From assembly GCA_965250115.1 (NCBI GenBank), contig CBDFNJ010000001.1, forward strand, positions 747,334 through 811,333: 64,000 nt of DNA, given 5' to 3'. The position numbers and the translations under genes were made by a program. Of the stretch, positions 10,115 through 37,762 are shown in pieces; the stretch's first letter is position 1; every line of letters begins with the position of its first letter. The notes under the pieces were generated by a model, which was not told where the DNA came from, searched no databases, and saw only the letters and a list, made by a program, of their open reading frames with translations. This stretch comes from Candidatus Marinacidobacterales bacterium. Lineage in GTDB: Bacteria > Acidobacteriota > Vicinamibacteria > Marinacidobacterales > SMYC01.

Positions 10115-10688
10115 CCTCGCCCAATGCGGAGGATGACGAGGGGGCGCCTTGCGAAGAGGGCTGCGTCTCTCGTCTGGTCGTGAGCCCCTCGAAACTCTTC
10201 TCGCGTTTGGTCTGGAAGTCGACCCGAATGCCCATGGTGCGAAGCCGGGCCTTCATGTTGGTAAGCTCGAGATTCAGCTGCGTCACCTCTTCGGCCAGAT
10301 TGTGCAACAAGATCACGTAGTAGCGATTGAGATCCGACTGCCTGGACAGCGCGCTGATCATGGGGTTGGGGTTGAAGAGGAGCTTGAGGACCGGATTCAA
10401 GAGACGTCGGATCGATCGTTTGAAGCGGCCTCCTCCTCCGCGGGACGATGCATAGATCGTCTCGGGATTGAAACTGAAGTTCCACTTGGCGTCCCGGGCC
10501 CGGAAGGCTGCTACGAAGTCGCTATTGAACTCGTTGCTGTCGAGCACGGCATCGAGCCTCATCTCCGCGATTTCACGAACCTCGTCCTCGGTATAGAGTC
10601 CTTTGCGCTTTTCATCGATTCTGCGCCGAATATTGGACATGATGGCCTCGACATCGATGTCCGACCCTTTCGCATTGAAGGTCGACAT
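9978..10688 (-). CDS. Hypothetical protein with predicted coiled coil and Arg/Gly-rich tail
   Basis: ATG at 10688 preceded by AAAGGAGG; co-oriented within the GT cluster. Confidence 0.75.
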   Translation of the reverse strand: MSTFNAKGSDIDVEAIMSNIRRRIDEKRKGLYTEDEVREIAEMRLDAVLDSNEFNSDFVAAFRARDAKWNFSFNPETIYASSRGGGGRFKRSIRRLLNPVLKLLFNPNPMISALSRQSDLNRYYVILLHNLAEEVTQLNLELTNMKARLRTMGIRVDFQTKREKSFEGLTTRRETQPSSQGAPSSSSALGEGERGRPRQRGGRRNYRRRRGGKPNEGRSGGGSSGPRDGNSGKTGG

Positions 10689-10825
10689 GGGCCTCCTTTC
10701 ACCACCGCGAAGCCACGGCCCGCGGCAATCCAAAACGTTGCGCACCGTTCGCGCCTATCCGGCCCTCGAAAGAGCCGCTCGGCAAGCCCGCGCACAATCT
10801 GAGCGGTTTATCTGATGAGGAGAGT

Positions 10826-11725
10826 CTAGCCCGGCCCGCGTCCGTGATAAATCAGCGCGACCACTGTTGCGGCCCAGAGCGCTACTGTCACGAGAATCGG
10901 CCTATCGTTGAGGAGCACCCTCGTTGGGTTGCCTCCTTCTTCCCTTCGGTGCACGAGGTAGAGGTACCTAAATATCCCGTACAGAACAAAAGGAAGGGTC
11001 CAAACCAGTCGGTCCGTACCAAGTCTCTCCACAGTCTCCGGCGCCAAGGTGTATAGCGCGTAGGAGACGAGGGTAGAGGCCGTTACCACGGCGATCATTT
11101 GATCCAGCAGGTACGGGCTGTACTCTCCCAGAATTCTCCGATGCTCGGACGCTTGGCCTGCGAGAAGCGTCAGCTCCTGCCGACGCTTGGCGAGGGCCAA
11201 GAACAACGCGAGCAACAATGTACAAATCAACAACCAATTGCTGAAGGGTTCACCGATCACCACTGCGCCGGCGACCGCCCTCAGCACGAAACCTAATGCC
11301 ACGATGAGAACGTCGAGAATAACGACGTTCTTCAAAAATACAGAATACCCCGCCATGATGAGAAAGTACACGCCCACCACGAAACCGAAGCCAGTCGAAA
11401 GAGCGAAGGCCCATCCGACTCCCGCGAGAAGACAGACGACCGTCGCCGCGATCGCGAGGCTCGATGAAAGAGCTCCAGAGGCGAGCGGTCGCTGGCTCTT
11501 GACGGGATGCTTGCGATCTCCCTCCACGTCGAGGAGATCGTTGATGAGATAGACCGAGCCCGACACGAGGCAGAACACCACGAACCCGGAGCTCGCCGCC
11601 ACGACCGCACCCAGGTCGTAGAGACGCTGGGCGAAGGCCAGAGGTGCGAGAACGACTAAGTTCTTGGTCCACTGGTAGGGGCGCAGGGAAATGAGCAGCT
11701 GTCTCAGCTGGCGAACGAAAGACAC
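10826..11725 (-). CDS. UbiA-family decaprenyl-phosphate phosphoribosyltransferase
   Basis: LRPYQWTKN, NDLLDVEGDRKHPVKSQRPLASG, LAKRRQE, YGIFRY; multi-TM. Confidence 0.88.
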   Translation of the reverse strand: MSFVRQLRQLLISLRPYQWTKNLVVLAPLAFAQRLYDLGAVVAASSGFVVFCLVSGSVYLINDLLDVEGDRKHPVKSQRPLASGALSSSLAIAATVVCLLAGVGWAFALSTGFGFVVGVYFLIMAGYSVFLKNVVILDVLIVALGFVLRAVAGAVVIGEPFSNWLLICTLLLALFLALAKRRQELTLLAGQASEHRRILGEYSPYLLDQMIAVVTASTLVSYALYTLAPETVERLGTDRLVWTLPFVLYGIFRYLYLVHRREEGGNPTRVLLNDRPILVTVALWAATVVALIYHGRGPG

Positions 11726-11812
11726 CAGTGCCAGTTCCTTAATAGCCCGATCGTGCCAAATGCCTATCTCCTCGAGATTGGCGCGGGAACTCTTCCGTGT
11801 CGGGAAGCAACT

Positions 11813-12157
11813 CTACTCGAAGCTCTTGACGGCCTCTGCTTCCGTTTCGTAGGTGTCGAAAACCGTCAGCAGCTTTGTAATCGACAGCAGATCCTGGATG
11901 CGCTTGGTCAAGTTGAGCAGCTTGAGCTTCCCGCTCTTGCGGCTCACCGTGGTATAACAGCGAACGATCTCACCGAGTCCGGCGCTATCCACGTAGGGAA
12001 CATCTGCCAGATTCAAGACGATCTTCTGGGTCCCGTTCTCGACCAAGTTGTTGATCTTTTCGCGCAGCAGCTCGTCACCCTCTCCGATGAGCATTTTCCC
12101 CTGCAAATCCAAGATGGTGACCCCATCAACTGCTCTTTCCTCGATTTTCATCGCCAA
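11813..12157 (-). CDS. STAS-domain anti-sigma factor antagonist
   Basis: VLNLADVPYVDSAGLG phosphoacceptor motif. Confidence 0.92.
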   Translation of the reverse strand: MAMKIEERAVDGVTILDLQGKMLIGEGDELLREKINNLVENGTQKIVLNLADVPYVDSAGLGEIVRCYTTVSRKSGKLKLLNLTKRIQDLLSITKLLTVFDTYETEAEAVKSFE

Positions 12158-12316: not shown

Positions 12317-13315
12317 ATGGGGGATCCGTTTCTTACTCGCCTTCAAGAGCGGGCGAGCGCTCGAAAGAATCGAATCGTGCTCCCCGAGGCGACCGAGCCC
12401 AGGACGCTGAAGGCAGCGGCGGAGTTGAAGCGGCGGGCCGTCGCGGAGCCCGTCCTGGTCGGCGAGCCGGAAGTCGTCCTAAAGGCAGCTCGTGACGCCG
12501 GGGTTTCGCCCGAGCAGCTGGCGGGTATCGAGATCCGATCTCCCAGCGAGCGGGCCAAGGCCGAGCTCTTCGGTCAAAGGCTCTACGAACGCCTTCGACA
12601 CAAGGGCATCTCCGAGGACGAAGCCCGCGAACTGGCCCGCGATCCGCTCTATTTCGGCGCCCTGATGGTCTCGGGAGGGGAAGCCGCGGGCTACGTCGCT
12701 GGAGCTCAAAACAGTACCGCCAACGTGTTACGACCCGCCATTCGGGTTTTCGGAACCGAAGCGGGCATTCGTCGTGTCTCGAGCTTCTTTCTCATGAGCT
12801 TCGCCGACGAGCGCCGTCAGTTCTTGTTTGCGGACTGTGCCGTGCTCCCGAATCCGAGCCCGACGGAGCTCGTCGAGATCGCCGAGCTCGCGGCCAAGAA
12901 CTGCCGCCTCTTCCTCGAAGTCGAGCCCCGGGTGGCCCTGCTTTCGTTCTCGACCAAAGGCAGCGCCGACCATCCCGACGTTCGCAAGGTAGCCGAGGCC
13001 GCGGAGACTCTGAAGGCCCGTGCCCCCGCGCTCCTGGCCGACGGAGAGCTCCAGGCGGACGCCGCCATCGTTCCCGAGATCGGTCAGAGGAAGGCGCCGG
13101 GGAGCGCGGTGGCAGGAAGGGCGAATACGTTGATCTTTCCTGATCTGAACTCAGGGAATATCGCCTGCAAGCTGGTCGAGCAGCTCGCGGGCTCGGCCGC
13201 CATCGGTCCCATCCTCCAGGGACTCGCGGCTCCCGCCAACGACCTGTCTCGAGGTTGTAGCGTGGAAGATATCGTCAACGTCGCGGCCATCACTTCCGTG
13301 CAGGCGAGCGCCTGA
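12317..13315 (+). CDS. pta: Phosphate acetyltransferase
   Basis: [48 protein letters not shown]. Confidence 0.95.
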
Positions 13316-13347
13316 AACGAGGGGAACGTGACGGCCGCGTCGGATGC

Positions 13348-13548
13348 TCAGTCGTGCTGCTCGCGACGCATCTTCTTGCGTTGACGTTTTCGCGCGAGCG
13401 CTTGCTTGGCGCGTTTCTTATCGCCAGGCTTCATGTAGAACGAGTGTCTCTTGATCTCTTTGATGATATCTTCCTGCTGCACTTTGCGCTTGAATCGCCT
13501 CAGCGCGCTCTCGATCGACTCGTTGTCCTGAACTCTAATCTCCGCCAA
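13348..13548 (-). CDS. rpsU: 30S ribosomal protein S21
   Basis: ESIESALRRFKRKVQ...FYMKP; basic 66 aa protein. Confidence 0.95.
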   Translation of the reverse strand: MAEIRVQDNESIESALRRFKRKVQQEDIIKEIKRHSFYMKPGDKKRAKQALARKRQRKKMRREQHD

Positions 13549-13685
13549 ATCGACTGCACCCCCCTTCCCTCATGGATTTTTTCGAGAGGGGCACGGCGTT
13601 CGAAGGCAAAGAGCCCAACTCTGCGAGGAGATGGGATGCAGGTGAACGCGACTGTACGGTTTTCGAAACCCGCTCGCTTCAAATC

Positions 13686-28421: not shown

Positions 28422-28571
28422 CAGTGACTCCTGTTCGTGCGGCCTAGCATGGCCTATGCCATCCTAGGGACGCAACAAGGCGGCAAGACCCCAAAAAGCG
28501 CATCGAAGCCTTCACAGCGCAAAACCTTATACACAAAAGATTTAGCATGCAATCGCCGTGCGAGAACGGAG

Positions 28572-28600
28572 TTGAACTTCGCTTTCACGACCCGCATAAT
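28572..28600 (+). promoter_or_regulatory. Candidate sigma70 promoter for the kinase gene
   Basis: TTGAAC, 17 nt spacer, CATAAT. Confidence 0.45.
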
Positions 28601-28646
28601 GACAGTAGAATTACATTCCAATTCCGTTTCAGGGGGTCTCGACCGC

Positions 28647-31600
28647 GTGGATTGCCCATCCTGCGGCCAGTCAGGTGCCTCGGATCGCCTCGAGTGCGAT
28701 CAGGGCGGCGCCTTGCTGGTCGATGTCTTCGAAAGCGACGATAGCAAGACCGATCCGATCCAGGTGATCGGAGGGGAGGGTATTCCCGCTGAAGACCAAG
28801 AGTTTCTCCGCGCCGCGAACGAAGCCGGGCTAGGCGAGTCGTCTCCTCGCGAGTCCCTGAGCCGACTCCCGACCGCCATCGACTACACGGGCGACCTCCC
28901 GCGTTTGTTCCGCTTCGGGGACCGATATCAGATCCTGGAAAAGCTCGGCGAGGGTAGCATGGGTCGCGTCTATAAAGCGCTCGATCTCGAGCTCGACCGC
29001 CCCGTCGCGCTCAAGACCATTCGCGTCGAGAAGGGCGCGGGCCGTGACCTTCTCGAGCGATTCAAGCAGGAGCTGATTCTCGCTCGCAAAGTGACGCACA
29101 AGAACGTCATCCGCATCTACGACCTCGGCGAGGCCGAAGGGATGAAGTTCTTCACGATGGAGCTCGTCGTGGGCAAGAGTCTTCGCGATCTTCTCGAGGA
29201 AAGCGGAACGCTCTCGGTCGCCGAGACCCTCTCGTTCATGAAGCAGATGCTCCTGGGGCTCGCCGAGGCCCACAGCGAGGGCGTCGTTCATAGAGATCTG
29301 AAGCCGCAGAACGTGATGGTAGACGGTGGTGGGGTCCTCCGCATCATGGACTTCGGCATTGCGCGGACCGCGGACTCCGCGACCATCACGGGCACGAGCG
29401 AGATGATGGGAACGCCCGACTATATCTCTCCCGAGCAAGTCAAGGGCGAGAAGGCGGACGCGAAATCCGACCTCTATTCGTTCGGTATCATCCTCTACGA
29501 GCTTCTCACGGGAGAGACCCCCTTCAGCGGCGAGACCGCCGTCTCTAAGATCGTTGCCCGTCTGCAGACCACACCGAAGCCTCCGCGCTCTTTGAACGCC
29601 GAGATACCCGGCTACCTCGAGCGCATCATTGTGAAGTGTCTCGAAGTCGATCCCGAGCTTCGCTACGCGAGCGCCGAAGAGGTTCTGAAGGATGTGGAGC
29701 GAGAACAGGTGGACCGATCCCTTTGGCCGCGTGTGCGAAAAGCGATCTCCCGACGTAAGGGGTGGGTCTTCGCGACGGCGGCCGCCTTGGCGGCTGTCCT
29801 CGCTTGGACGCTCGTCCCGGATCCGCAACCCATCGACGTGACCACCATTGCCGTCCTCCCATTTCACAACCAGACCCAAGCCGCGGACCTCGAGTGGATG
29901 GAGAACGGCCTTGCCGATCTACTCATCACGGATCTCTCGCAGTCGCGGGCCCTTCGTCCCTTGATGGCCGACAGCATTCACAGCGTACTGCAGGTGCTCG
30001 GCAAGACGGACGAGACCCGCCTCGACGAGGAGACTCACGGGGTCGTCGCGAGTCGGACCGGAGCGGACTTCACGCTCTCCGGCAGATTCTTGCAGGCCAA
30101 CGAGAAGCTGCGCGTCGACTTGAGCCTGAGACGCTCGACCACCGGCGTCGATACGATCGTGAAAGTCGAAGGTCGTTCCTCCGAAGTCTTCACGCTCGTC
30201 GACGCGATCGCCGAGAAAGTCAGCGACGAGCTAGCGCCCAATGCCTGGCGCAGGAAGCGATCGTCTGAGAACATCCCTCTCGAGGCGGTACGAGCCTATC
30301 AACAGGGCTTGCTTGCTCTCCGCGATGGCGCCCACCAAAGCGCCGTTCCCAAGTTTCGAGAAGCGGTCGAGCACTATAGCGAGTACGCGATGGCGCATGC
30401 GAAGCTCGCCGAAGCCCTCTTTCACATGGGGGATCAAGCCTCGGCGTCGCAAGCCATCGAGAGGGCCCGCGAGCTCGAGACGGACAAGCAGCTTCCGACT
30501 CTCGAGACGTATCAACTCCACGCGATCGCCGCGCGAATCGAGGACGATCCCGAGGCCGCCGTCGAAACCTACCGGGAGCTCTCCGATCTCTATCCGGAAT
30601 CTCCCGACATCCTCTTCAATCTCGCGAGCTCTCTCGAGACGGCGGGTGAGATCGCCGAGGCGACGGATACCTACCAGCGCGTCGTGGCCAAGTCTCCGGA
30701 CTATGGCGGCGCCATCCTGGGCCTCGGACGGCCCCTGGTCGTCAGCCGAAAACCGGATCAAGCGATCGAGGTTCTCGAGGAAGCTCTCGAGGCGGGCTAT
30801 TTCCAGGGCGACGCGGAGTCCCTCGGAATGGCCTACTCCGTGCTCGGCGTCGCCCACCGGGCTCTGGGCAAATACGACGCGGCGCTCGTCGAGCTAAGAA
30901 AGTCTCTGGAGCACCGCCGAGGGGCGGACGACAAGCGCGGGATTGCGGCAACTCTGACGAACTTGGCCGGAGTCCACTTGGAGCTCGGTGAGCACGAAGC
31001 GGCGAGCTCCCTTTTGACGGAAAGCCTCGCCGTCGCACGGGAGGCTGAGAATTCCACCATGGAGTCCTTCGCTCTCGTGAACCTCGCGAACGTTAGACGG
31101 AATATAGGAGAGCTCGATTCGGCCCTCGAGTACTTTAGGTGGTCGCTCACGATCGAGTGGGAAAAAAAGGACCATAAGGAGCTCGCCGATCGCATGAATG
31201 AAGTTGGACTAACTTACTTCAGCCGCGGCCTGTACGCGGACGCGGAGACCTACCTGGAGCAGGCCAAGGTGCACCTCGCCGTGAGCGACATGCCCGATGA
31301 AAAAGCCGCGAACCTCCTGCTCCTGGGGAGCATCTACAGAATGAAGGGCGCCTACACGGAGTCGGTCCAGGCCCTCCTCGGTGCCGTGCCCCTGTTCTTG
31401 GACGCCGGACTGCCGGGAGGCGCCGCCGCTGCCAGGACGGAGCTTTCGGCGATCTACCTCGCCCAGGGCCGGCTTCGAGATGCGCTCAGCTCCGCGGATC
31501 GTGCGGTCACGGAATCGGAGCCGTCGGGAGACTTCGAAACGCACGCCCGTTCGCTGATCCAAAGGGCTCTCTGCCTGACCCGATTGGGACGCTCGGGCGA

Positions 31601-32219
31601 GGCCGAGGAGAGCCTGGGGCGAGCGGCGAGGGCTCTCGGAAAGAGAAAGCTCGTGGAGATCGAGCTGCTCCGCGATTTGGCGAGAGGTCGGCTATCGCAA
31701 GAGCTCGGAGACCATCGCAAGGCCATGCGACAGCTCGAGACGGTCGAAAACGACGCTCGACGATTCGGCCACTTGGCGCCCAAGCTCGAAGCATTGCTAC
31801 ACCTTGGCGATGCGCATCTCCGTGTCGGCGAGCCTCGGGAGGCGATTGAGCTGTTCCGAGAGGTTCAGGAAGAAGCCTCCAGCCGGCGACTCCGTCCCCT
31901 CATGGCAGAGGCATTTCTTGGAATGGCGGAAGCACAGTCGACGCTGGGCGAGGCTGTGTCCGCGCTCGAGCTCGTCGAGAGGGCCACGAGACTGGCCGAG
32001 TCCCTCGAGGCTCGCCCTTTACTCGTTCGAGCGCTTCGCCTCGAGGCCGCGATCGCGAAGAAGGCGGGCGCGTTCGAACGCGTGGCCGTTGCGGAGAGCA
32101 AGTGCCGGGAGCTCGAAAGTTGGCTGGCTCAGCACGACGCTCCCACCAACGCGTCCTCAGCGAGCGGACAAAAAAAAATAGCGGCCTCGAAGTCAGCCGC
32201 TATTGTAAGAAAGTGCTGA
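28647..32219 (+). CDS. Membrane Ser/Thr protein kinase: degenerate Zn-ribbon, Hanks kinase, TM helix, TolB-N/FlgO-like domain, long TPR array
   Basis: GTG at 28647 after AGGGGG; LGEGSMGRVY, VALK, HRDLKPQN, DFG, GTPDYISPE; TM WVFATAAALAAVLAWTLV; IAVLPFHNQ; many TPR-like helical repeats. Confidence 0.92.
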   Translation: MDCPSCGQSGASDRLECDQGGALLVDVFESDDSKTDPIQVIGGEGIPAEDQEFLRAANEAGLGESSPRESLSRLPTAIDYTGDLPRLFRFGDRYQILEKLGEGSMGRVYKALDLELDRPVALKTIRVEKGAGRDLLERFKQELILARKVTHKNVIRIYDLGEAEGMKFFTMELVVGKSLRDLLEESGTLSVAETLSFMKQMLLGLAEAHSEGVVHRDLKPQNVMVDGGGVLRIMDFGIARTADSATITGTSEMMGTPDYISPEQVKGEKADAKSDLYSFGIILYELLTGETPFSGETAVSKIVARLQTTPKPPRSLNAEIPGYLERIIVKCLEVDPELRYASAEEVLKDVEREQVDRSLWPRVRKAISRRKGWVFATAAALAAVLAWTLVPDPQPIDVTTIAVLPFHNQTQAADLEWMENGLADLLITDLSQSRALRPLMADSIHSVLQVLGKTDETRLDEETHGVVASRTGADFTLSGRFLQANEKLRVDLSLRRSTTGVDTIVKVEGRSSEVFTLVDAIAEKVSDELAPNAWRRKRSSENIPLEAVRAYQQGLLALRDGAHQSAVPKFREAVEHYSEYAMAHAKLAEALFHMGDQASASQAIERARELETDKQLPTLETYQLHAIAARIEDDPEAAVETYRELSDLYPESPDILFNLASSLETAGEIAEATDTYQRVVAKSPDYGGAILGLGRPLVVSRKPDQAIEVLEEALEAGYFQGDAESLGMAYSVLGVAHRALGKYDAALVELRKSLEHRRGADDKRGIAATLTNLAGVHLELGEHEAASSLLTESLAVAREAENSTMESFALVNLANVRRNIGELDSALEYFRWSLTIEWEKKDHKELADRMNEVGLTYFSRGLYADAETYLEQAKVHLAVSDMPDEKAANLLLLGSIYRMKGAYTESVQALLGAVPLFLDAGLPGGAAAARTELSAIYLAQGRLRDALSSADRAVTESEPSGDFETHARSLIQRALCLTRLGRSGEAEESLGRAARALGKRKLVEIELLRDLARGRLSQELGDHRKAMRQLETVENDARRFGHLAPKLEALLHLGDAHLRVGEPREAIELFREVQEEASSRRLRPLMAEAFLGMAEAQSTLGEAVSALELVERATRLAESLEARPLLVRALRLEAAIAKKAGAFERVAVAESKCRELESWLAQHDAPTNASSASGQKKIAASKSAAIVRKC
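32170..32204 (-). terminator. Rho-independent terminator for the small peptide gene
   Basis: 9-bp stem AATAGCGGC (32177-32185) / GCCGCTATT (32196-32204); A9 run at 32170-32178 gives the U-tract on the minus strand. Confidence 0.8.
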
Positions 32220-32228
32220 TGAGCAGCT

Positions 32229-32288
32229 CTAGAACTGCTTGCCGTGCTGGCCGGACCAGCCGGATCGAATCCGTGTCTTCACCTGCAT
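32229..32288 (-). CDS. 19-aa peptide MQVKTRIRSGWSGQHGKQF, putative C39-processed precursor (below the ORF-track cutoff)
   Basis: Hand translation; AGGAGG at 32302-32297, 8 nt before the ATG; own promoter and terminator. Confidence 0.78.
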   Translation of the reverse strand: MQVKTRIRSGWSGQHGKQF

Positions 32289-32343
32289 GGAAGCTTCCTC
32301 CTTCTGATGCTTACCCGCAGCGATACACCGATGAACGTGTCGC

Positions 32344-32372
32344 AGGATAAACGGCCCTTTTCGTGGTGTCAA
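32344..32372 (-). promoter_or_regulatory. sigma70-type promoter of the peptide gene
   Basis: TTGACA (32372-32367), 17 nt spacer, TATCCT (32349-32344). Confidence 0.72.
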
Positions 32373-32395
32373 CCCTACAGATCAGTGTAAAAAAG

Positions 32396-32456
32396 TAACA
32401 TGTTATGGGGACTTCCCCCCGACTCGTAAACCCTTGCTAGCGTAGGGGAAACCCCT
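32396..32456. promoter_or_regulatory. Palindromic candidate operator boxes
   Basis: TAACATGTTA 32396-32405, GGGGACTTCCCC 32407-32418, AGGGGAAACCCCT 32444-32456. Confidence 0.5.
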
Positions 32457-32602
32457 CTCCCTTGAAGCCGAGACGAGCCCGACGTCGTTGCGAAACCCTC
32501 TCTTAGATTGACTATGAATTCTTAAGAACATTGACTATTATGAGACAATCTGATTGAGCGAATTGACAATGTCACCTTACAGATGTTGTCTATTAATTGA
32601 CA

Positions 32603-33634
32603 ATGAGCGTCAGGACGAAAGACCGAATCCTGAAATACCTCGGTTCCCATCCGGGGGCGGGAGGCAAGGCGCTGCGCGAGCACCTGGGTGTCAGCCGACA
32701 AGCCTTGAGCGTCCACCTTCGCGATCTGGTCCGCGAGGAAAAAATAGTCAAGTCCGGTTCCACGCGTGGGGCAAGCTACCAGCTGGCCGGCTCACAACCG
32801 CAGCCTCGGAAAGCGTCGCGGCGCGCCGTGCTCGAGGGCCTCGACGAAAGCCTCGTCTACGACGAGCTCGCCACGCGATTGAACTTGGGCTCTGAGCTTC
32901 GAGGCAACGTGCGCGCTTTGGTGCGCTACGGCTTCACGGAAATGCTCAACAACGCCATCGATCACTCGAAAGCCGAAACCTGCAACGTCTCTCTGGAGAT
33001 CGATTCGGCGAAGGTGGCTTTCGACGTGAAGGATCGCGGGGTAGGAGCGTTTCACTCCATCGCTTCCAAGTTCTCGCTCCCCGACGAGGAAGCCGCGATG
33101 ATCGAGCTCCTCAAGGGCAAGACCACGACGGCGCCGGAGCGCCACACGGGAGAAGGGATCTTTTTCACCGCCCGTGCCGCCGACGAGCTCACACTGCGCT
33201 CCCACCGTCTCCAGCTGGAGTGGAGCAAGAGCCGAGACGACGTCTTCGTCTCCGAGAGACGCCACATCGAGGGCACCCACGTAAGCGTCACGTTGTTTCA
33301 CGCCACACGACGCCGTTTGGAGGACGTCTTCCGGGAGTTTGCTCCGGCAGATTACGACTACGAATTCCAGAAAACGAGAATTCTCATTCGGCTGCTGCGG
33401 CGTGACTACGTCTCGCGTTCAGAGGCCAAGAGGCTTCTCACGAACCTGGACAAGTTTCGGGAGGTTCGGCTCGACTTTAGAGACGTACAGTCGGTAGGCC
33501 AGGGCTTCGCGGACGAGGTTTTCCGCGTCTTCGCTCGAGAACATCCTGACGTCCTAATCGTGCCGGCGCGCGCGTCACCCGCGGTTTTGGCCATGCTTCG
33601 CCACGTCGGCTACGCGGGCGCGGGCGAGCACTAG
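32603..33634 (+). CDS. wHTH + HATPase-like + STAS-like (DUF4325) protein
   Basis: N-terminal HTH (LGVSRQALSVHL), TEMLNNAIDHS, DRGVG, GEGIFF, LDFRDVQSVGQGFADEVFR. Confidence 0.85.
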   Translation: MSVRTKDRILKYLGSHPGAGGKALREHLGVSRQALSVHLRDLVREEKIVKSGSTRGASYQLAGSQPQPRKASRRAVLEGLDESLVYDELATRLNLGSELRGNVRALVRYGFTEMLNNAIDHSKAETCNVSLEIDSAKVAFDVKDRGVGAFHSIASKFSLPDEEAAMIELLKGKTTTAPERHTGEGIFFTARAADELTLRSHRLQLEWSKSRDDVFVSERRHIEGTHVSVTLFHATRRRLEDVFREFAPADYDYEFQKTRILIRLLRRDYVSRSEAKRLLTNLDKFREVRLDFRDVQSVGQGFADEVFRVFAREHPDVLIVPARASPAVLAMLRHVGYAGAGEH

Positions 33635-33647
33635 TTCTTCGCGGCCA

Positions 33648-35465
33648 TCACGGATGGGCGACGACGACGAGAGATTTCGCCCGATCGCGGGCGCAGATGA
33701 GCGCGCGACGAAGGTTCCCGGGATCGAGGGCCGCGAAGCTCTCGTCGAGAAGCACGAGATCACCGCCCTGAAGCAGCGCCCGCGCGAGGAAGGTGCGACT
33801 CCGCTCGCCGTGAGAGAGCTGCCAGCCCGTCTCGCCGACGAGCTGGTTCATCCCCCCGGCATCTTCTCGAGAAGCTCTCCGAGACCGAGCTCCGGGGCAA
33901 GACCTTCGGCCTCCTGCCAGTCCTTAGCACTCGGCGGCCAACGGCGTCCCATCAAAAGGTTGAAGGCGAAGGTCTCGGTGAAGACGTGGCTCTCGTGAAA
34001 CTGAGGGGCCGTCGCGATCCGCCGCGTCCATCCGTGCGCTCCCAGGCTCTCCCGATCGAGTCCCTTCAGACGAAGCCGACCGGACGTCGGTGTCCTGAGT
34101 CCGTTCAGAAGCGAGAGCAACGTCGACTTGCCACCTCCGGAGGGAGACGTCAGAAGAACGCGGTCGTCAGGTCCGAGGCGAAAGCGGCCGTCACGAATCG
34201 TCGCTTCGGCGCGGCCGGGATACTGGAAGAGAAGATCCTCGGCAGTCACGGTGGCCGCCTCGTTCTCGGCGCGCGCATTGGGATCCCCTGGAAGAGGCTC
34301 GCGGCTGGCCGCGCGAAAGAGTGGCTCGACGCGTCCCCAGGCGATGACGGCGTCGAGGAGCGCAGACAGACCGTCCGTGAGTTTCTTCAAGGCTCGCGAC
34401 GCCAGGATCGTGCCGCCGAGACCGACGGCCACCCGCTCTATGCTCGCTCCACCGCCGACCATGGCGGGAGCGAGGCCGAGAAGGCCGATCGGAAGCCAGG
34501 CGCGATGGGCGACTGCGAGAAAGCGCTTCAGATGGTCCACCTCGCGCGATCGATCGAGATAGCCCGAAAGGCGTGCGTCTTCTTCGTCGTACTACGCCTC
34601 GGGCGCTTGCTGCGCGAGCCGGGTGCGATGGCCGACCATGAGCTCGAGGAGCGCGGCCATAGAGAGCAGTCCCCCCGAGAGCGCGAGTGACTCCACGGCT
34701 TCGGACTCGAAGACTCTCGCGAGGTGTCGGCCGGCGCCGTCCCGCCGGGTCTCGTCCGGCTCGAGACGCATCGCGCCGAGAAGGAGTCGCCTCTTGAGAA
34801 GACCTCCCGCCGCGACGGCGATCTTTCCCTCGTACCACGTCGAGAGCATGCGAAAGGGAAGCATGGTCAGAAAGACGAGCGCCCAGGCGGAAAGCCACCC
34901 CCAGTCGATGCGACCGCTGAGCGCACCGCGGCCGATGAGCCACCAGGAAACGATGAAGAGGCCGTAGTCGATCGCGTAGGTCGACGCGAAGGCGAAAGCG
35001 AGCGACTTGAGCCGCGTGTCTTTGACCTCGTCTCGGAGAGAGCCCGGACGTTCCCTGAGAAGCCACACCCGCTCGCGGACCACGCCGCTTTTTCGCTCGG
35101 TGGTGAGGTGTTCTTTCGCCCGCCGCCGCGCGTCGGGTGCGAGGTCGAGAGAGTCGACTACGCTCTCTACCTCATTCGGACCATCGCCAGTCGTCTCGCG
35201 TTCGAGGGCTTCCACGGGGTACAGGCGTTCGCTTCCCCGCTCGTCTAAAACACGAACGTTCCTCGAGCCGCCACGCGTCATGAGAAGGAATCGACCGCGC
35301 TCGAGAGCTAGAATAGCTGGAGCGCCCGAGCACAGGAACTTCGGCACTTCGGCCTTCGACAGTGTGAGTGGTTGCGCTTCAACGCCTGCGAACCTCGCCG
35401 CGGAGACGAGCCACTCGTCGAGCTCTCCTTCGGGCGGCGGCGCGAGCGCTCATCGATTCTTCCTT
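33648..35465 (-). pseudogene. Second ABC exporter subunit (TMD+NBD), frameshifted and internally deleted
   Basis: Fragments 34592-35347, 33848-34540 (SPSGGGKST) and 33648-33851 (LSHGERSR..LLDESFAALD); the TMD is too short at LLEL|MVGHRTRLAQ; 5' boundary approximate. Confidence 0.8.
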
Positions 35466-37762
35466 CGCGCAATCGAAAGCGCCGCCATGAGCTCTCAGAC
35501 CAGAGCGCCTCGAGCTCTCGATCGGCGTCGCGGAGACGAGCGAAGCGAGATCCCGGAGCCTCGAGAAGCGCTTTCGGCGATCCATCCTCGGCGAGGCGTC
35601 CCCCTTCGAGAACGAGCACACGGTCGAAGCCCTCGGCTTCGGCGATGTCATGGGTCACGCAGAGCAGCGTCGCGTCCCTCCACAGTCGACGCGTACGAGC
35701 GAGAAGCTCTCCCCGCCGCTCCCGATCGAGCCCTCCGCCTTCGCCAAGCGGCCTGCTCCCTCCGTCGGGGAGACCTTGGAGCACAGACCGCAAATCCGCG
35801 AGCTCGAAGACGGAAGCGACGTCGCGCGCGTCGTTTCCGTAGCGCAGATTCTCGACGAAGCTTCGATTCCAGATCTGAACCTCCGGGTCGACCCAGGCGA
35901 TCTCACGCCTCACCGACGCGAGACGGTCGCCGCTCAAGATCCCCCCGTCGACGACCACGCGGCCCTCGTCGGGAAAGTGCCAGCCGAGCGGCAGACTGAG
36001 CAGGGAGGTCTTTCCCGCACCCGAGGGGCCCACGATTGCCACGTGGCTTCCCGGCTCGATGACGAGGTCGATCGTCTGAAGGATCGCGTGGCCGGCAGGG
36101 CGCAGGTTCACTCCCTCGAATCGAAGGGACATAGCACGGGAGTCCGCTACCTTCGAGCTCGAACCATCCGCCTTGGGCGCGACCTCGGTCTCCTCGAGGG
36201 CACGCAAGGGCTCCCCGAGTCGCAAGCTCACGTTCCGAAGCGCCGGATAGCGCCAGCAGAGAGAAACGAGCTCGAGCCCGAGGACGGGAAGGTTGAGCGC
36301 CCAATAGGCGAGTAGAAGGACGGCGGCCGTTTCTCCCCCGGCGCCTAGATAGGTGAACAGCAGAAACACGATGAGACCGTAGCCGGCAAGGAACTGCGCG
36401 CCACTCAGACCAACGGCGACCCGCTGCAAACCGAGCCTCGCACGCGCCCAGTGCACGAGCAGAGCCTCGTGCTCTTCTCGCATCGCGCGCTCCGCGCCAT
36501 GAGCTTTGAGGGGGACGAGACCGAGCAGCGCATCGAGGTAGAAGCAACTCAGTCCACCCAGGTGGCTCCTCACGCGAAGGTCGCGCTCGTGTAGAAGCCT
36601 CTGCCCGGCGATGGGAATCACGAGGGCCGCGACGAGCATCAGGAGAACGAAAGGCGCGGTACCTGGCGCGAGCCAAACGATGGCAGCCGCGGTAAGAGCG
36701 AGCTCGAAGCCGGCGCGCGCAACCTGCCCGGTCAGTTGCGGTACGGTCCTCAACAGGTGGCTCGAGTGGTTGCGCTCGGCCATATCCGACACGAGACGAC
36801 TTCGAAAATAGCGGTCCGAGAGACGAGCTACTTTCCGCTGAAGCGCGAGACGAAGCCGCGACGAGGAGCGACGGAGCCGCCCTACCCTCTTCGAAGACCT
36901 GCCGGAGCAAGTCGCGGAGCGGGCGCTCGGGAGTTTCGTCGCGGGCGGCATCGATGCGCGTTGAAAAAGAGCTCACTTCCACCGGCTCTTCGCTCGGCCG
37001 GACGAGCACGGCGCCGCGGACCTCGAGCATCGCGCCTTCGCCCGGCCGCTCAGACCGCGCAGACCATGCAGAAAAGTAGCGCTCGGGAATTGCGCCAGGT
37101 TGTTGCTTTTCTTTCTCGTAGAGAGCCCGCGCGAGCGCGAGACCGTCCCGTCCGAGGCCCGCAGCGGAAGCAGCTCGGAAGTCGGCGTCGAGGTCCGCGA
37201 GCGAGCGCCAGTCAGGATCAGAAAGAGCCTCTCCGAGGAGCGCGGAGGCCTCCTCGGCAGACGCACCGACAGCCGCGAGTCGGCGAGAGAAGCCGGCCGT
37301 CGCTTCCTTCGCACCCGCCCAGGCTCTCCAGTCCTCGGCCGCAACCTCCATCCGGTGCTCGAAGAGCTCGGCCATGAGCTCGACACGCGTCAGCCAGCGA
37401 CGGCCGGAGGCGGGATCCATGACTTGGACGAGGCCATGAAATACGTTCCAAATCACGACGAAGTGGGAATTGCCGTTGGGCAGGCGGAAGACGGCGACGG
37501 CGGGCAGGTTCCGAGAGCCCGCGAGCAGCACGTGGTCTCTCGGCACGAGAACCTGCTCGGCCGGCAAGCCAAAGTAGGTCGCAAGCTCCTCGAGAGTCTC
37601 GATAGCCGTGCCATCGACGTCCGTTTGGCAGGCTTCACGGAGCCTCCCGTAGCTCACGGGAATGCCGTGGCCCTCGAGAAAGGCCTTCAAGGCTGCCGGA
37701 CCGCAGTCCATTGCCGAGGACTGCACGACCTCCGGGATGAGCCTCTTTCTGCCAGCTGCCAT
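35440..37762 (-). pseudogene. C39 peptidase-containing ABC exporter (PCAT), frameshifted and deleted
   Basis: QSSAMDCGPAAL, HFVV and VMDP (Cys-His-Asp triad intact); frame change near 36900; GPSGAGKT present but signature and Walker B missing at LGEGGG|LDRERR. Confidence 0.85.

Follow-up and report, generated by a model that had tools for sequence, protein, structure and literature searches.

A 19-codon gene of marine Acidobacteriota that probably encodes a secreted signal

Introduction

Genes of 15–20 codons are, to our knowledge, almost never annotated, and peptide signaling is considered rare in Gram-negative bacteria. One locus in a 64,000-nucleotide stretch of DNA from a Candidatus Marinacidobacterales bacterium (contig CBDFNJ010000001.1, positions 747,334 to 811,333; hereafter the window) brings these two matters together by raising the question whether a 19-codon open reading frame (ORF), flanked by expression signals and lying between the remnants of a peptide exporter and a receptor-like kinase gene, is a real gene, and what its product might do. 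The stretch is present, whole or in part, in 20 of the 24 sequencing runs listed, across 10 studies, and none of the runs that contain it is recorded as RNA.

In this report, we draw from the expression signals at the locus, from homologous loci in related genomes and from comparison with known peptide systems to assess the gene and its possible role. Throughout the text the window’s own genome is labeled G000, its relatives carry labels such as G001, G003 and G008, and G029 denotes a genome of a second family. We infer translation of the peptide, as well as its cleavage, export and binding, from sequence.

Expression signals of the 19-codon gene

The features on which the argument draws are, from the exporter to the kinase:

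35446–37762, minus strand: remnant of a C39-peptidase ABC exporter (PCAT), with Pfam Peptidase_C39 and partial ABC_tran matches in two overlapping ORFs
33651–35443, minus strand: remnant of a second ABC exporter gene, with no C39 domain, carrying deletions and a frameshift
32460–33629, plus strand: 1170-nt insertion relative to G001, between exporter and peptide promoter, delimited by blastn blocks and lying outside the module
32385–32399, minus strand: conserved upstream box GTTACTTTTTTACAC, 12 nt 5′ of the −35 hexamer
32344–32372, minus strand: predicted sigma-70-type promoter, TTGACA-17-TATCCT, scoring 10 of 12 matches
32297–32302, minus strand: Shine-Dalgarno sequence AGGAGG, 8 nt 5′ of the ATG
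32229–32288, minus strand: 19-codon ORF MQVKTRIRSGWSGQHGKQF with stop codon TAG, by translation
32168–32204, minus strand: predicted intrinsic terminator, a hairpin followed by T9, overlapping the 3′ end of the convergent kinase gene
28437–32219, plus strand: convergent gene for a Ser/Thr protein kinase (Pfam Pkinase, TPR) that has a single transmembrane segment and, toward its C-terminus, a long TPR region; a candidate receptor

The initial annotation had described a complete cassette of promoter, ribosome-binding site, ORF and hairpin with a T run, and all four signals are indeed present on the minus strand where they had been claimed. The −35 element TTGACA (32372–32367) is separated by a 17-nt spacer from the −10 element TATCCT (32349–32344), the ORF runs from its ATG at 32288–32286 to its TAG at 32231–32229, and the terminator consists of a hairpin at 32204–32177 with 10 pairs (one G-U, 5 G-C) and a loop of 8, followed by nine T at 32176–32168, the T run being 8 or 9 long depending on the strain. 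A transcript of about 170 nt, starting near 32337, would be expected. The same annotation had argued that four correctly spaced signals made chance unlikely. The promoter is the sole promoter-like site on either strand within 30000–35000 (shuffled sequences, mean 0.3, sd 0.7), and that interval has 3 terminator-like sites against a mean of 4.8 in shuffles. Because terminator-like sites are not enriched there, the argument against chance rests on conservation and not on the scan.

That conservation begins upstream of the gene. The block common to the window and G001 starts at 32459, and the box GTTACTTTTTTACAC is the same in G001 and G008, with 0 mismatches over 30 specified positions. Boxes of the form GTTAC-N6-TAC[AT]C or GTTAC-N5-GTAAC occupy the matching place in all 9 aligned loci of the window’s type (type A, see below), which also keep the TTGACAC −35 element, and we regard the box as a candidate transcription factor binding site. 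The whole cassette (promoter, Shine-Dalgarno sequence, short ORF, terminator) recurs at the syntenic position in other genera: all type-A homologues have GGAG or GAGG 6–9 nt 5′ of the ATG, and each is followed by a hairpin and T run, the terminator sequences being unrelated to one another.

A family of very short peptides

A profile search recovers homologous ORFs of 15–20 codons in 13 of the 55 genomes of the order, namely 12 of the 19 in the window’s family (its own genome counted) and 1 of 8 in a second family, and in none of 150 other genomes of the phylum. The homologues in G008, G003 and G018 were first located via synteny. A strict back-translated pattern missed most relatives, with matches in 2 of the 19 genomes of the family and 3 of the 401 of the class; run over all species representatives it returned 12 stretches, and a Shine-Dalgarno sequence with a 20-codon ORF was found only in the G008 record. 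The peptides conform to the consensus MKVKTRIQAG-x(1-5)-GK[QK][FY], in which the 1–5 variable residues are mostly Gly-rich, with the family motif KT[RN][IV][QKR][AS]G, and start, stop, Shine-Dalgarno sequence and short length are kept in every member. In the window’s ORF, codons 1–10 encode the decapeptide conserved throughout the family, codons 11–15 evolve fast and the final GKQF is the C-terminal motif of type A.

The pattern of change is that of a protein-coding sequence. Across codons 2–10 of 10 family members, variation touches 4 of the 9 first positions, 3 of the second and all 9 of the third, and pairwise codon differences comprise 168 synonymous and 83 non-synonymous changes, where random single changes would be synonymous in 21 of 81 cases; these statistics are partly ascertained, as some members came from a degenerate back-translated pattern. 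In G008 a DNA-level search matched the promoter block and not the ORF. Since third positions vary and the DNA search in G008 finds the promoter only, the ORF is conserved as protein. On this comparative evidence ORF MQVKTRIRSGWSGQHGKQF is a genuine coding gene, which bears out the view that the locus holds a real, unannotated gene equipped with expression signals of its own; relatives keep the frame.

The gene appears to be single in its genome. A six-frame search for VKTRIRSG allowing up to 2 substitutions gave 34 matches in the window’s genome, among which the only short, M-initiated one is the ORF itself, and a DNA search of the same genome found no copy besides the locus. The N-terminus of the genome’s own bL35, ANKPKSHRGAAKRFRK, has only the spacing K-[ST]-x-x-x-[AS]...K-x-F in common with the peptide, and the similarity is too short to score. 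When the peptides of the window and of G001, each lengthened by one upstream codon to 20 residues, were compared with Pfam and NCBIfam, 0 families came back at E-values of 10 or less; HMMER filters may lose queries of that length. A literature search found no paper describing this peptide family. The initial annotation had likened the peptide to KTxxKAG-type peptides near C39 exporters; the motif found here is similar and does lie beside such exporters in acidobacterial genomes, while a prior description of such a family was confirmed neither in these two databases nor in the literature. The family, 15–20 residues long and found in one order of marine Acidobacteriota, is thus undescribed in these sources.

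The exporter and kinase neighborhood

The peptide gene lies between two kinds of conserved neighbor. Some 3.5 kb upstream of it in the window, likewise on the minus strand, is the C39-peptidase ABC gene, so the association with a C39 exporter holds as to position; in the window’s genome this gene is disrupted. Relative to the intact gene of G001 (794 aa) the remnant has lost about 71 residues and changed frame, with G001 residues 1–295 and 367–739 matching in different frames (tblastn), and it carries the sole C39 domain of the window’s genome. The second ABC gene is also broken, with one TGA and one TAG inside the match; it is frameshifted in G001 as well, and its orthologues in other genera are open over 705–720 aa. 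The insertion that separates the exporter from the peptide promoter holds a gene with wHTH, HATPase_c_2 and DUF4325 domains (32597–33634; Pfam) and an AT-rich upstream region. Where the exporter is intact it looks active, the C39 domain of G018 retaining the Q, DCG, HF and DP columns of PCAT1 (4RY2), which correspond to the catalytic Q, C, H and D.

The order C39-ABC, second ABC, peptide and convergent kinase or TPR gene is found in G001, G003, G008, G014, G017, G018 and G029, the last keeping it in a second family and being the only genome in which an HlyD gene was seen. Type-A peptides occur in 11 of the 13 genomes with an orthologue of the second ABC gene and in 0 of the 6 without one. Since 17 of the 19 genomes of the family have a C39 domain, co-occurrence with C39 at the level of the genome says little.

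Linkage to the kinase is closer. In G001, G003, G014, G017, G012 and G029 the peptide gene faces a convergent kinase or TPR gene, and a kinase-TPR or TPR-CHAT gene adjoins it in G000, G001, G003, G014, G017, G012, G013 and G029; the distance from the peptide gene to the 3′ end of the kinase gene remains within 80–100 nt, even with extra genes between exporter and peptide. The window’s kinase gene likely starts near 28647 and its true stop is likely the TAG at the A run, as in G001. Its product is 92% identical to that of G001, and both proteins are full length. In the kinases a single hydrophobic stretch follows the kinase domain, with basic residues ahead of it (RRKG in the window’s protein), and the TPR-CHAT protein has a signal-like N-terminus; these features predict an extracytoplasmic location for the TPR regions of the partners. 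With the kinase C-terminus as the query, no confirmed relative was found among 205 genome-contig and 335 metagenome-contig pattern stretches.

On the evidence of gene order and domain content, these genes form a three-part conserved module of a paired ABC exporter with a C39 domain, a peptide gene with a regulated promoter and terminator, and a convergent Hanks-type kinase.

Locus types and the leader-like decapeptide

Three types of locus share the N-terminal decapeptide and differ in their tails (GK[QK]F; VRWxxxD; PGVRGPGK). All three adjoin TPR proteins, be it a kinase, a TPR-CHAT protein or a kinase plus TPR, and some loci hold tandem copies of the peptide gene. Position 5 of the peptide is T in every member found except G003, which has S.

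Read as a leader, the decapeptide would place the putative cleavage site after SG. Double-glycine leaders usually have about 15–30 residues, and the initial annotation was right that this one is shorter; canonical features are missing too. With 10 residues ending in SG or AG, it falls outside the canonical class (15–30 residues ending in GG, GA or GS), and of the three expected hydrophobic positions only −4 (I or V) conforms, −7 being basic (K or R) and −12 absent. Processing by the peptidase LahT150 was lost when −4 or −7 was basic, and the shortest substrates reported as tested with it retained 13–14 leader residues (PMC6363468).

A possible mechanism and its known counterparts

The peptide gene probably encodes a secreted signal, to judge from its family and neighbors. 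More specifically, we hold, at a little under an even chance, that the peptide is the minimal precursor of an exported signaling peptide sensed by the TPR kinase. It would be synthesized in the cytoplasm and, with the family-wide decapeptide as a minimal tag, be processed and exported by the C39 exporter. What is then released outside the cytoplasm would be the type-specific C-terminal part, WSGQHGKQF in the window’s peptide, which ends in a free aromatic residue; the TPR ectodomain of the neighboring kinase would bind it, and the kinase would signal inward. In favor of this we count, besides coding conservation and synteny, the common decapeptide with type-specific tails next to TPR proteins, and the fast divergence of codons 11–15 with frame and length preserved. 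Counting against export are the departure from C39 leader rules, the break in the window’s only C39 exporter beside an intact peptide gene, exporter scores far under the NHLP cut-offs (given below) and the sighting of HlyD in G029 alone. Also, these genomes are rich in TPR proteins and kinases, and adjacency could partly be chance; nor are related genomes independent.

A broader reading, which we consider doubtful as a whole, is that of a Gram-negative peptide-ligand and receptor-kinase system in which precursors of 15–20 residues with a 10-residue tag would be exported through C39, ligands of 5–10 residues with a free C-terminal aromatic residue would be sensed by the TPR domain that a Hanks-type Ser/Thr kinase exposes outside the cytoplasm, tails of paralogs would address TPR-CHAT and other TPR partners, and cores would diversify between species in the manner of pherotypes.

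Several known systems offer partial parallels. PCAT/AMS double-glycine systems (ComC-ComAB, class II bacteriocins, microcins, LahT substrates) likewise pair a short ribosomal peptide with a C39 ABC exporter bearing the catalytic residues; the conserved N-terminal part of the peptide ends in a small-residue pair and is followed by a variable C-terminal part, and some loci have tandem copies. The family studied here differs in its leader (10 residues and not about 15–30, [AS]G and not GG, GA or GS, basic at −7, no −12), in putative cores of only 5–10 residues, in an exporter made of a pair of ABC genes and in having HlyD in one genome. RRNPP-type peptide signaling is a Firmicutes system, known from Rap/Phr, NprR/NprX, PlcR/PapR and Rgg/SHP. 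As there, a very short peptide gene adjoins the gene of a TPR protein (here a candidate receptor) and tails differ by lineage, but the host is a Gram-negative acidobacterium, and in place of a cytoplasmic receptor joining TPR to an HTH or phosphatase the partners are Pkinase-TM-TPR (that is, a transmembrane Hanks-type kinase) or TPR-CHAT proteins whose TPR is predicted to be extracytoplasmic.

PatS has 13–17 residues and carries the motif RGSGR. In Anabaena and Nostoc, where it is a tiny developmental peptide, the C39-type ABC exporter HetC has been proposed, though not proven, to handle a signaling peptide, and its substrate is described as still not known (PMC4133259; PMC10986499). The parallel is that a Gram-negative bacterium combines a tiny peptide with an ABC exporter of C39 type; the sequences are not alike, and RGSGR does not occur in the family. 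NHLP/Nif11 export cassettes (TIGR03796, TIGR03797, HlyD-type protein) resemble the module in having a C39-bearing ABC subunit followed by a C39-less second one, and differ in that the peptides here are without an NHLP or Nif11 domain. The exporter proteins are not members of these families either, with scores for TIGR03796 and TIGR03797 of 84–166 bits against cut-offs of 709–853 (best 166 vs 853 and 136 vs 709).

Alternative explanations

The ORF could be incidental to a small non-coding RNA, or to a mere terminator or antisense element for the convergent kinase gene, as the initial annotation had already allowed in case the frame proved unconserved. The predicted 170-nt transcript does fold better than shuffled sequences (z = −2.75, with 3 of 200 equally good), and its terminator overlaps the end of the kinase gene. 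Against this, the fold of the G001 transcript has z = −1.33, the RNAalifold consensus of 9 type-A transcripts has 0 conserved pairs and Rfam gives no match (best E-value 2.1, all below gathering scores) and 0 in 8 related loci; what genera have kept is the amino-acid sequence, with variable third positions, and all members have a start, a stop, a Shine-Dalgarno sequence and the same shortness in common. With the frame checked in relatives and conserved, we disfavor this explanation and deem it very improbable. If the product is a peptide, it need not leave the cell. A small basic protein could act in the cytoplasm on its neighbor, for example as a substrate or pseudosubstrate of the Ser/Thr kinase or as another regulator, with the exporter linked incidentally or for other cargo. 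This would account for an intact peptide gene beside a broken sole C39 exporter, for linkage that is tightest to the kinase gene rather than the exporter, for a decapeptide that breaks double-glycine leader rules, and for a conserved Thr or Ser at position 5 with basic residues on its flanks. It is unlikely, in our estimate, given partner TPR regions predicted to be extracytoplasmic, an active-looking C39 exporter in 7 genomes with no alternative cargo candidate nearby (in G003 the exporter-kinase gap of about 310 nt has no room for another small ORF), and the combination, typical of exported precursors, of a common N-terminus, type-specific tails and tandem copies.

The broken exporter raises a further explanation, in which the family functions elsewhere and the window’s copy is the relic of a decaying module, too small to have been hit yet, whose middle reflects relaxed constraint and one multi-base mutational event. 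Both exporter genes are broken in the window and one in G001, and the divergence of the kinase gene from G001 at first-plus-second positions (3.9%) is high relative to that at 4-fold sites (7.8%). Within the peptide gene, 10 of the 15 nt of codons 11–15 differ from G001, against 48 of 618 4-fold sites (7.8%; P = 1.7e-8); in either species the patch is able to fold into a small GC hairpin, its register shifted between the two, as a template switch could produce. We did not count this hairpin as compensatory covariation, the pairs being in different register in the two species. The frame and length of the patch are nonetheless preserved, promoter, Shine-Dalgarno sequence, start, stop, decapeptide and GKQF are all retained between G000 and G001, the kinase is full length in both, and the ORF is invariant in contigs of 4 same-species runs (X3, X11, X13 and X15). 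We judge a relic unlikely. Because the exporter is disrupted in the window’s genome, we consider that its module may be decaying or that the peptide may act without export; for the family, an exported signal sensed by the kinase is the reading that we retain.

Implications

The micro-gene family described here has a clear coding signature and a regulated promoter, and beside it lie an exporter that looks dedicated and a receptor-like kinase. If the proposed mechanism is true, it would provide a case, open to testing, in which the ligand of a bacterial receptor Ser/Thr kinase is a ribosomal peptide, and C39 exporters would accept a far shorter, non-canonical tag than rules derived from Gram-positive bacteria permit. 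Should the mechanism prove wrong, the family would still point to a conserved module of three parts in an uncultured order of marine Acidobacteriota and supply a search profile for further such genes.

The micro-gene and its signals

All four elements that the initial annotation had claimed for the minus strand, namely promoter, ribosome-binding site, ORF and hairpin with U-run, are present in this genome (G000; 6.37 Mb in two contigs, ~60.6% G+C; the window is C1:747334-811333) at the spacing it described:

32372-32367 and 32349-32344, minus strand: promoter, TTGACA and TATCCT with a 17-nt spacer (sigma-70-like scan)
32302-32297, minus strand: Shine-Dalgarno sequence (SD) AGGAGG, 8 nt 5' of the ATG
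32288-32229, minus strand: peptide ORF MQVKTRIRSGWSGQHGKQF, ATG at 32288-32286, TAG at 32231-32229 (translation)
32204-32177, minus strand: terminator, a 10-pair hairpin followed by T9 at 32168-32176 (scan)

The promoter is the only sigma-70-like site that the scan found on either strand between 30000 and 35000 (mean of 0.3 in shuffles). Because terminator-like sites are not enriched as a class in the region (3 versus a shuffle mean of 4.8), the scan is weak proof on its own. The scans of the window gave no tRNA or tmRNA and nothing near threshold in Rfam (best E = 2.1), and the peptide matches no family in Pfam or NCBIfam.

Members and distribution of the peptide family

The frame, whose loss in relatives was to count against a peptide gene, is conserved. 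In the same-genus relative G001, which is colinear with the window at ~95% identity, the ORF reads MKVKTRIRSGGHGGCGKQF and agrees with the window's in start, frame, length and stop, and homologues occur in 13 of the 55 genomes of the order. A DNA search of 40 relatives gave as its second-genus match a 42-nt promoter block alone, in G008, lying 3' of the orthologue of the second of the two ABC exporter genes found beside the micro-gene. Beyond a transposase gene, G008 has a 20-codon ORF, MKVKTRIQSGSGGNQFNHYP, preceded at 7 nt by AGGAG and followed by a hairpin and T8 of its own; the intervening transposase thus cuts this ORF off from its promoter. At that locus (L018), transposase-like ORFs lie at 10598-11887, between promoter block and ORF (mutator-family-like, named by its likeness to a Transposase_mut match elsewhere and by reading of the sequence), and at 12562-13674, between peptide and kinase.

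Second-ABC orthologues are present in 13 of the 19 genomes of the family, and the ORFs 3' of them include MKVRSRIQAGPGDGKQY in G003 and MKVKTRIQAGWKGKKF in G018. A relaxed back-translated pattern hit nine places in 7/19 genomes, its reversed control none. A profile of nine aligned peptides found 19 places in the order, the positive genomes being G000 and 11 of the 18 others of its family, 1/8 of a second family and 0/28 of a third. On 151 genomes sampled across the phylum the profile found G000 only; a strict pattern run on one genome per species of all Bacteria and Archaea hit 12 stretches, with a short ORF and SD in the G008 record alone. Within the genomes searched, the family was therefore not found beyond this order.

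Coding signature

Over codons 1-10 of ten members, M, V, R, I and G are invariant and the other positions admit only K/Q, K/R, T/S, Q/R/K and A/S. Variation in codons 2-10 touches 4/9 first, 3/9 second and 9/9 third positions, and pairwise codon differences are synonymous in 168 cases and non-synonymous in 83, where random single changes would be synonymous in 21 of 81. These statistics are partly ascertained, since the pattern that retrieved some members puts no constraint on third positions; against this, the members in G008, G003 and G018 were located by position, and the reversed-pattern controls gave no hits. A small RNA, named by the initial annotation as the alternative to a peptide gene, is disfavoured by these data: the frame is conserved in relatives, no Rfam family comes near threshold, and RNAalifold detected no shared pair in nine aligned transcripts of the window's locus type (type A), whose conserved columns concentrate in the SD and the ORF. 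Every type-A member also has a TTGACAC -35 element and, 17 nt further, a -10-like hexamer, together with a GTTAC-N6-TAC[AT]C box 12 nt 5' of the -35 (GTTAC-N5-GTAAC in G029, of the second family), an SD, and a terminator of unrelated sequence between genera. Taken together, the comparisons make it very probable that the micro-gene is translated.

Divergence within the genus and among strains

From 32459 downward the window and G001 are near-identical, from the promoter and 5' leader across the ORF and its terminator to the kinase gene. In codons 11-15, 10 of 15 bases have changed. Four-fold degenerate sites of the neighbouring kinase gene differ at 48/618 (7.8%), a rate at which the probability of at least 10 changes in 15 is 1.7e-8, and the patch ranks within the three most divergent 30-column stretches of 6.4 kb. 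The middle of the peptide was thus not changed by neutral point mutation, which would leave either diversifying selection or replacement by a single multi-base event. A small GC hairpin can form in the patch of both species; its register is shifted, so it was not counted as covariation and was dropped. The kinase gene (28647-32177) differs between the two genomes by 3.9% at first and second codon positions versus 7.8% at four-fold sites, which is somewhat on the high side for a conserved enzyme, and its TPR region shows small replacement clusters such as EHYSE/ARHDD and EVLEEA/PFLEQS.

The stretch is present, whole or in part, in 20 of the 24 public runs listed, from 10 studies; none of these is recorded as an RNA run. 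Contigs of four runs, all of the same species as the window, show no differences within 32229-32288 and single-base differences at 32216, 32328 and 32414. The homopolymer at 32168-32176 (T9 on the minus strand, A9 on the plus) has 8 bases in G001 and is 1-2 bases shorter in several run contigs; with the shorter run the kinase ends at QKK, as in G001, which makes the window's 13 additional residues either a variant of this strain or a homopolymer error. Two more short contigs of one of these runs (X15) match the promoter block alone (32358-32417) with other sequence on both sides, and a contig of another (X3) joins 32399 to 33719; their probable sources are related organisms or loci bearing this promoter box.

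Neighbouring genes and synteny

Convergent to the micro-gene is a gene whose 3' end the terminator overlaps; its protein, of 1177-1260 residues, combines a Pkinase domain and a long TPR region (Pfam) with a single hydrophobic segment. Farther upstream, on the micro-gene's own strand, two ABC exporter genes survive as remnants, of which the first encodes a Peptidase_C39 domain; a plus-strand gene separates them from the promoter:

32460-33629: insertion of 1170 nt relative to G001, holding the winged-HTH gene (genome alignment)
32597-33634, plus strand: winged-HTH/HATPase_c_2/DUF4325 (STAS-like) gene (Pfam)
33651-37762, minus strand: disrupted ABC exporter pair (comparison with relatives)

G001 lacks the insertion, and its peptide promoter lies directly 3' of the second ABC gene. 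The winged-HTH protein matched no NCBIfam family at E up to 1e-10; the ~140 nt 5' of its gene are AT-rich and contain an inverted repeat as well as recurring TGTCAAT/AGTCAAT words.

The order C39-ABC, second ABC, peptide, convergent kinase-TPR recurs in G001, G003 and G014, and by tblastn in G008 with two transposase-like insertions. G018 has the first three genes in order, with only TPR ORFs detected beside the peptide, and G029 has the module order with HlyD upstream and with kinase and TPR as separate ORFs. The peptide is convergent to the kinase in G017 (on a short contig) and in G012, where it lies 3' of a DUF4388 gene. Inserted genes fill the exporter-peptide gap in the window, G008, G014 and G018; in G003 the exporter-to-kinase space amounts to ~310 nt in full. 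From the peptide to the 3' end of the kinase gene there are 80-100 nt in G003, G014, G017 and G012. The survey covered neighbourhoods other than those of G002, G011 and G005. Type-A peptides occur in 11/13 genomes with a second-ABC orthologue, the two exceptions being 74-75% complete, and in 0/6 without; these genomes are non-independent kin, and no statistical test is therefore given.

Three locus types

The N-terminal decapeptide is common to three locus types, and the tail is type-specific. In type A it is followed by 1-5 variable, mostly Gly-rich residues and a G[KR][KQ][FY] end. In type B (MKVRTRIQAGVRWMVHD and relatives) the conserved leader is a different one and a hairpin is conserved too; the G013 copy lies upstream of a TPR-CHAT gene, after which comes an ECF sigma/anti-sigma pair. 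At the type-B loci L049 (~1479-1650, minus), L052 (~1479-1650, minus), L051 (~1380-1700) and L071, a ~110-nt leader, GGAGGCAGGCAAGAAC...CCGGCGTCCAGCGC...GTAGGGGTGCCCT, lies 5' of the ATG, and a conserved GC-rich hairpin without a T-run follows the stop, ahead of the TPR-CHAT gene; Rfam gave no match to type-B loci. The type-B ORF of G008 has no stop and continues into the TPR frame. Type C (MKVKTNIQAGPGVRGPGK / MTVKT...) forms arrays of two or three identical 18-codon genes whose stops and starts overlap as ATGA, preceded by a sigma-54-promoter-like TGGCAC-N5-CTGCA motif; a kinase gene and a TPR gene are near in G018. Two type-C loci (L083, 9258-9980; L080, 9762-10410) are divergent from DUF1592/DUF1552/ankyrin genes.

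Exporter, candidate receptor and proposed mechanism

A C39 exporter, the kind of gene near which the initial annotation placed similar short peptides, does lie upstream on the same strand, but in G000 it is disrupted. In the window's C39-ABC gene, residues 1-295 and 367-739 of the G001 protein fall in different frames and ~71 residues are absent. The second ABC gene shifts frame too, both here and in G001. Relative to G001, four stretches of roughly 100-200 nt are gone from the exporter genes, with overlaps of 9-20 nt at each junction, which suggests deletion between short direct repeats. Beyond this remnant no other C39 domain was found in the window's genome. This leaves two options: decay of the module in this genus, or a peptide that needs no exporter. 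The co-occurrence of C39 domains with the peptide (12/12 peptide-positive genomes of the family) carries little weight, since 17/19 genomes of the family have such a domain.

The reading of the initial annotation is partly supported. Its peptide gene stands; the decapeptide, which it called shorter than classic double-glycine leaders, is unlike such a leader. The peptidase LahT150 holds the hydrophobic residues -4, -7 and -12 in a groove. Processing was abolished by a basic residue at -4 or -7, and among the substrates reported as tested the shortest retained 13-14 residues of the leader (PMC6363468). The decapeptide has K or R at -7, A or S at -2, and no -12. The exporter shares a two-subunit architecture with the NHLP exporter families but scores far below their cut-offs. 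The closest working likeness combines double-glycine PCAT export with an RRNPP-like arrangement, in which a short peptide gene adjoins the gene of a TPR receptor; as the module lacks defining features of PCAT cargo and of RRNPP systems, it is filed under neither. HetC of Nostoc, a C39-type exporter, is the nearest Gram-negative analogue, and is proposed to export a still unknown signalling peptide (PMC10986499, PMC4133259). Within a limited literature collection, we found no publication on Marinacidobacterales or on a combination of PCAT, kinase, TPR and signalling peptide, and, among the matches listed, no acidobacterial C39/double-glycine precursor family of this sort.

Alignment of the G018 C39 domain with PCAT1 (4RY2) places the oxyanion Gln, catalytic Cys (DCG), His and Asp all in position, so the exporter should cut a cargo, and the micro-gene product is the only candidate for that cargo in the conserved cluster. 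In the kinases a single hydrophobic segment comes directly behind the kinase domain, with RRKG or RRRG in front of it; this segment is above threshold in 3/5 examined (G000, G014, G012), while in G017 only a different stretch exceeds the threshold, and in G003 none. With the signal-like N-terminus of the G013 TPR-CHAT protein, these segments and their basic residues predict that the TPR regions lie outside the cytoplasm.

Judged from sequence and gene order, an exported precursor would be the most economical account. The shared decapeptide would direct the precursor to the exporter, and the short tail would be released and then read by the TPR ectodomain. The conserved aromatic residue at the C-terminus would suit this, as TPR domains are known to clamp free C-termini. 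Export as a signal is the best, if unproven, role that we can tentatively assign to the peptide, and the mechanism we favour, on a similarly provisional footing, is one in which this signal may be read by the neighbouring TPR kinase.
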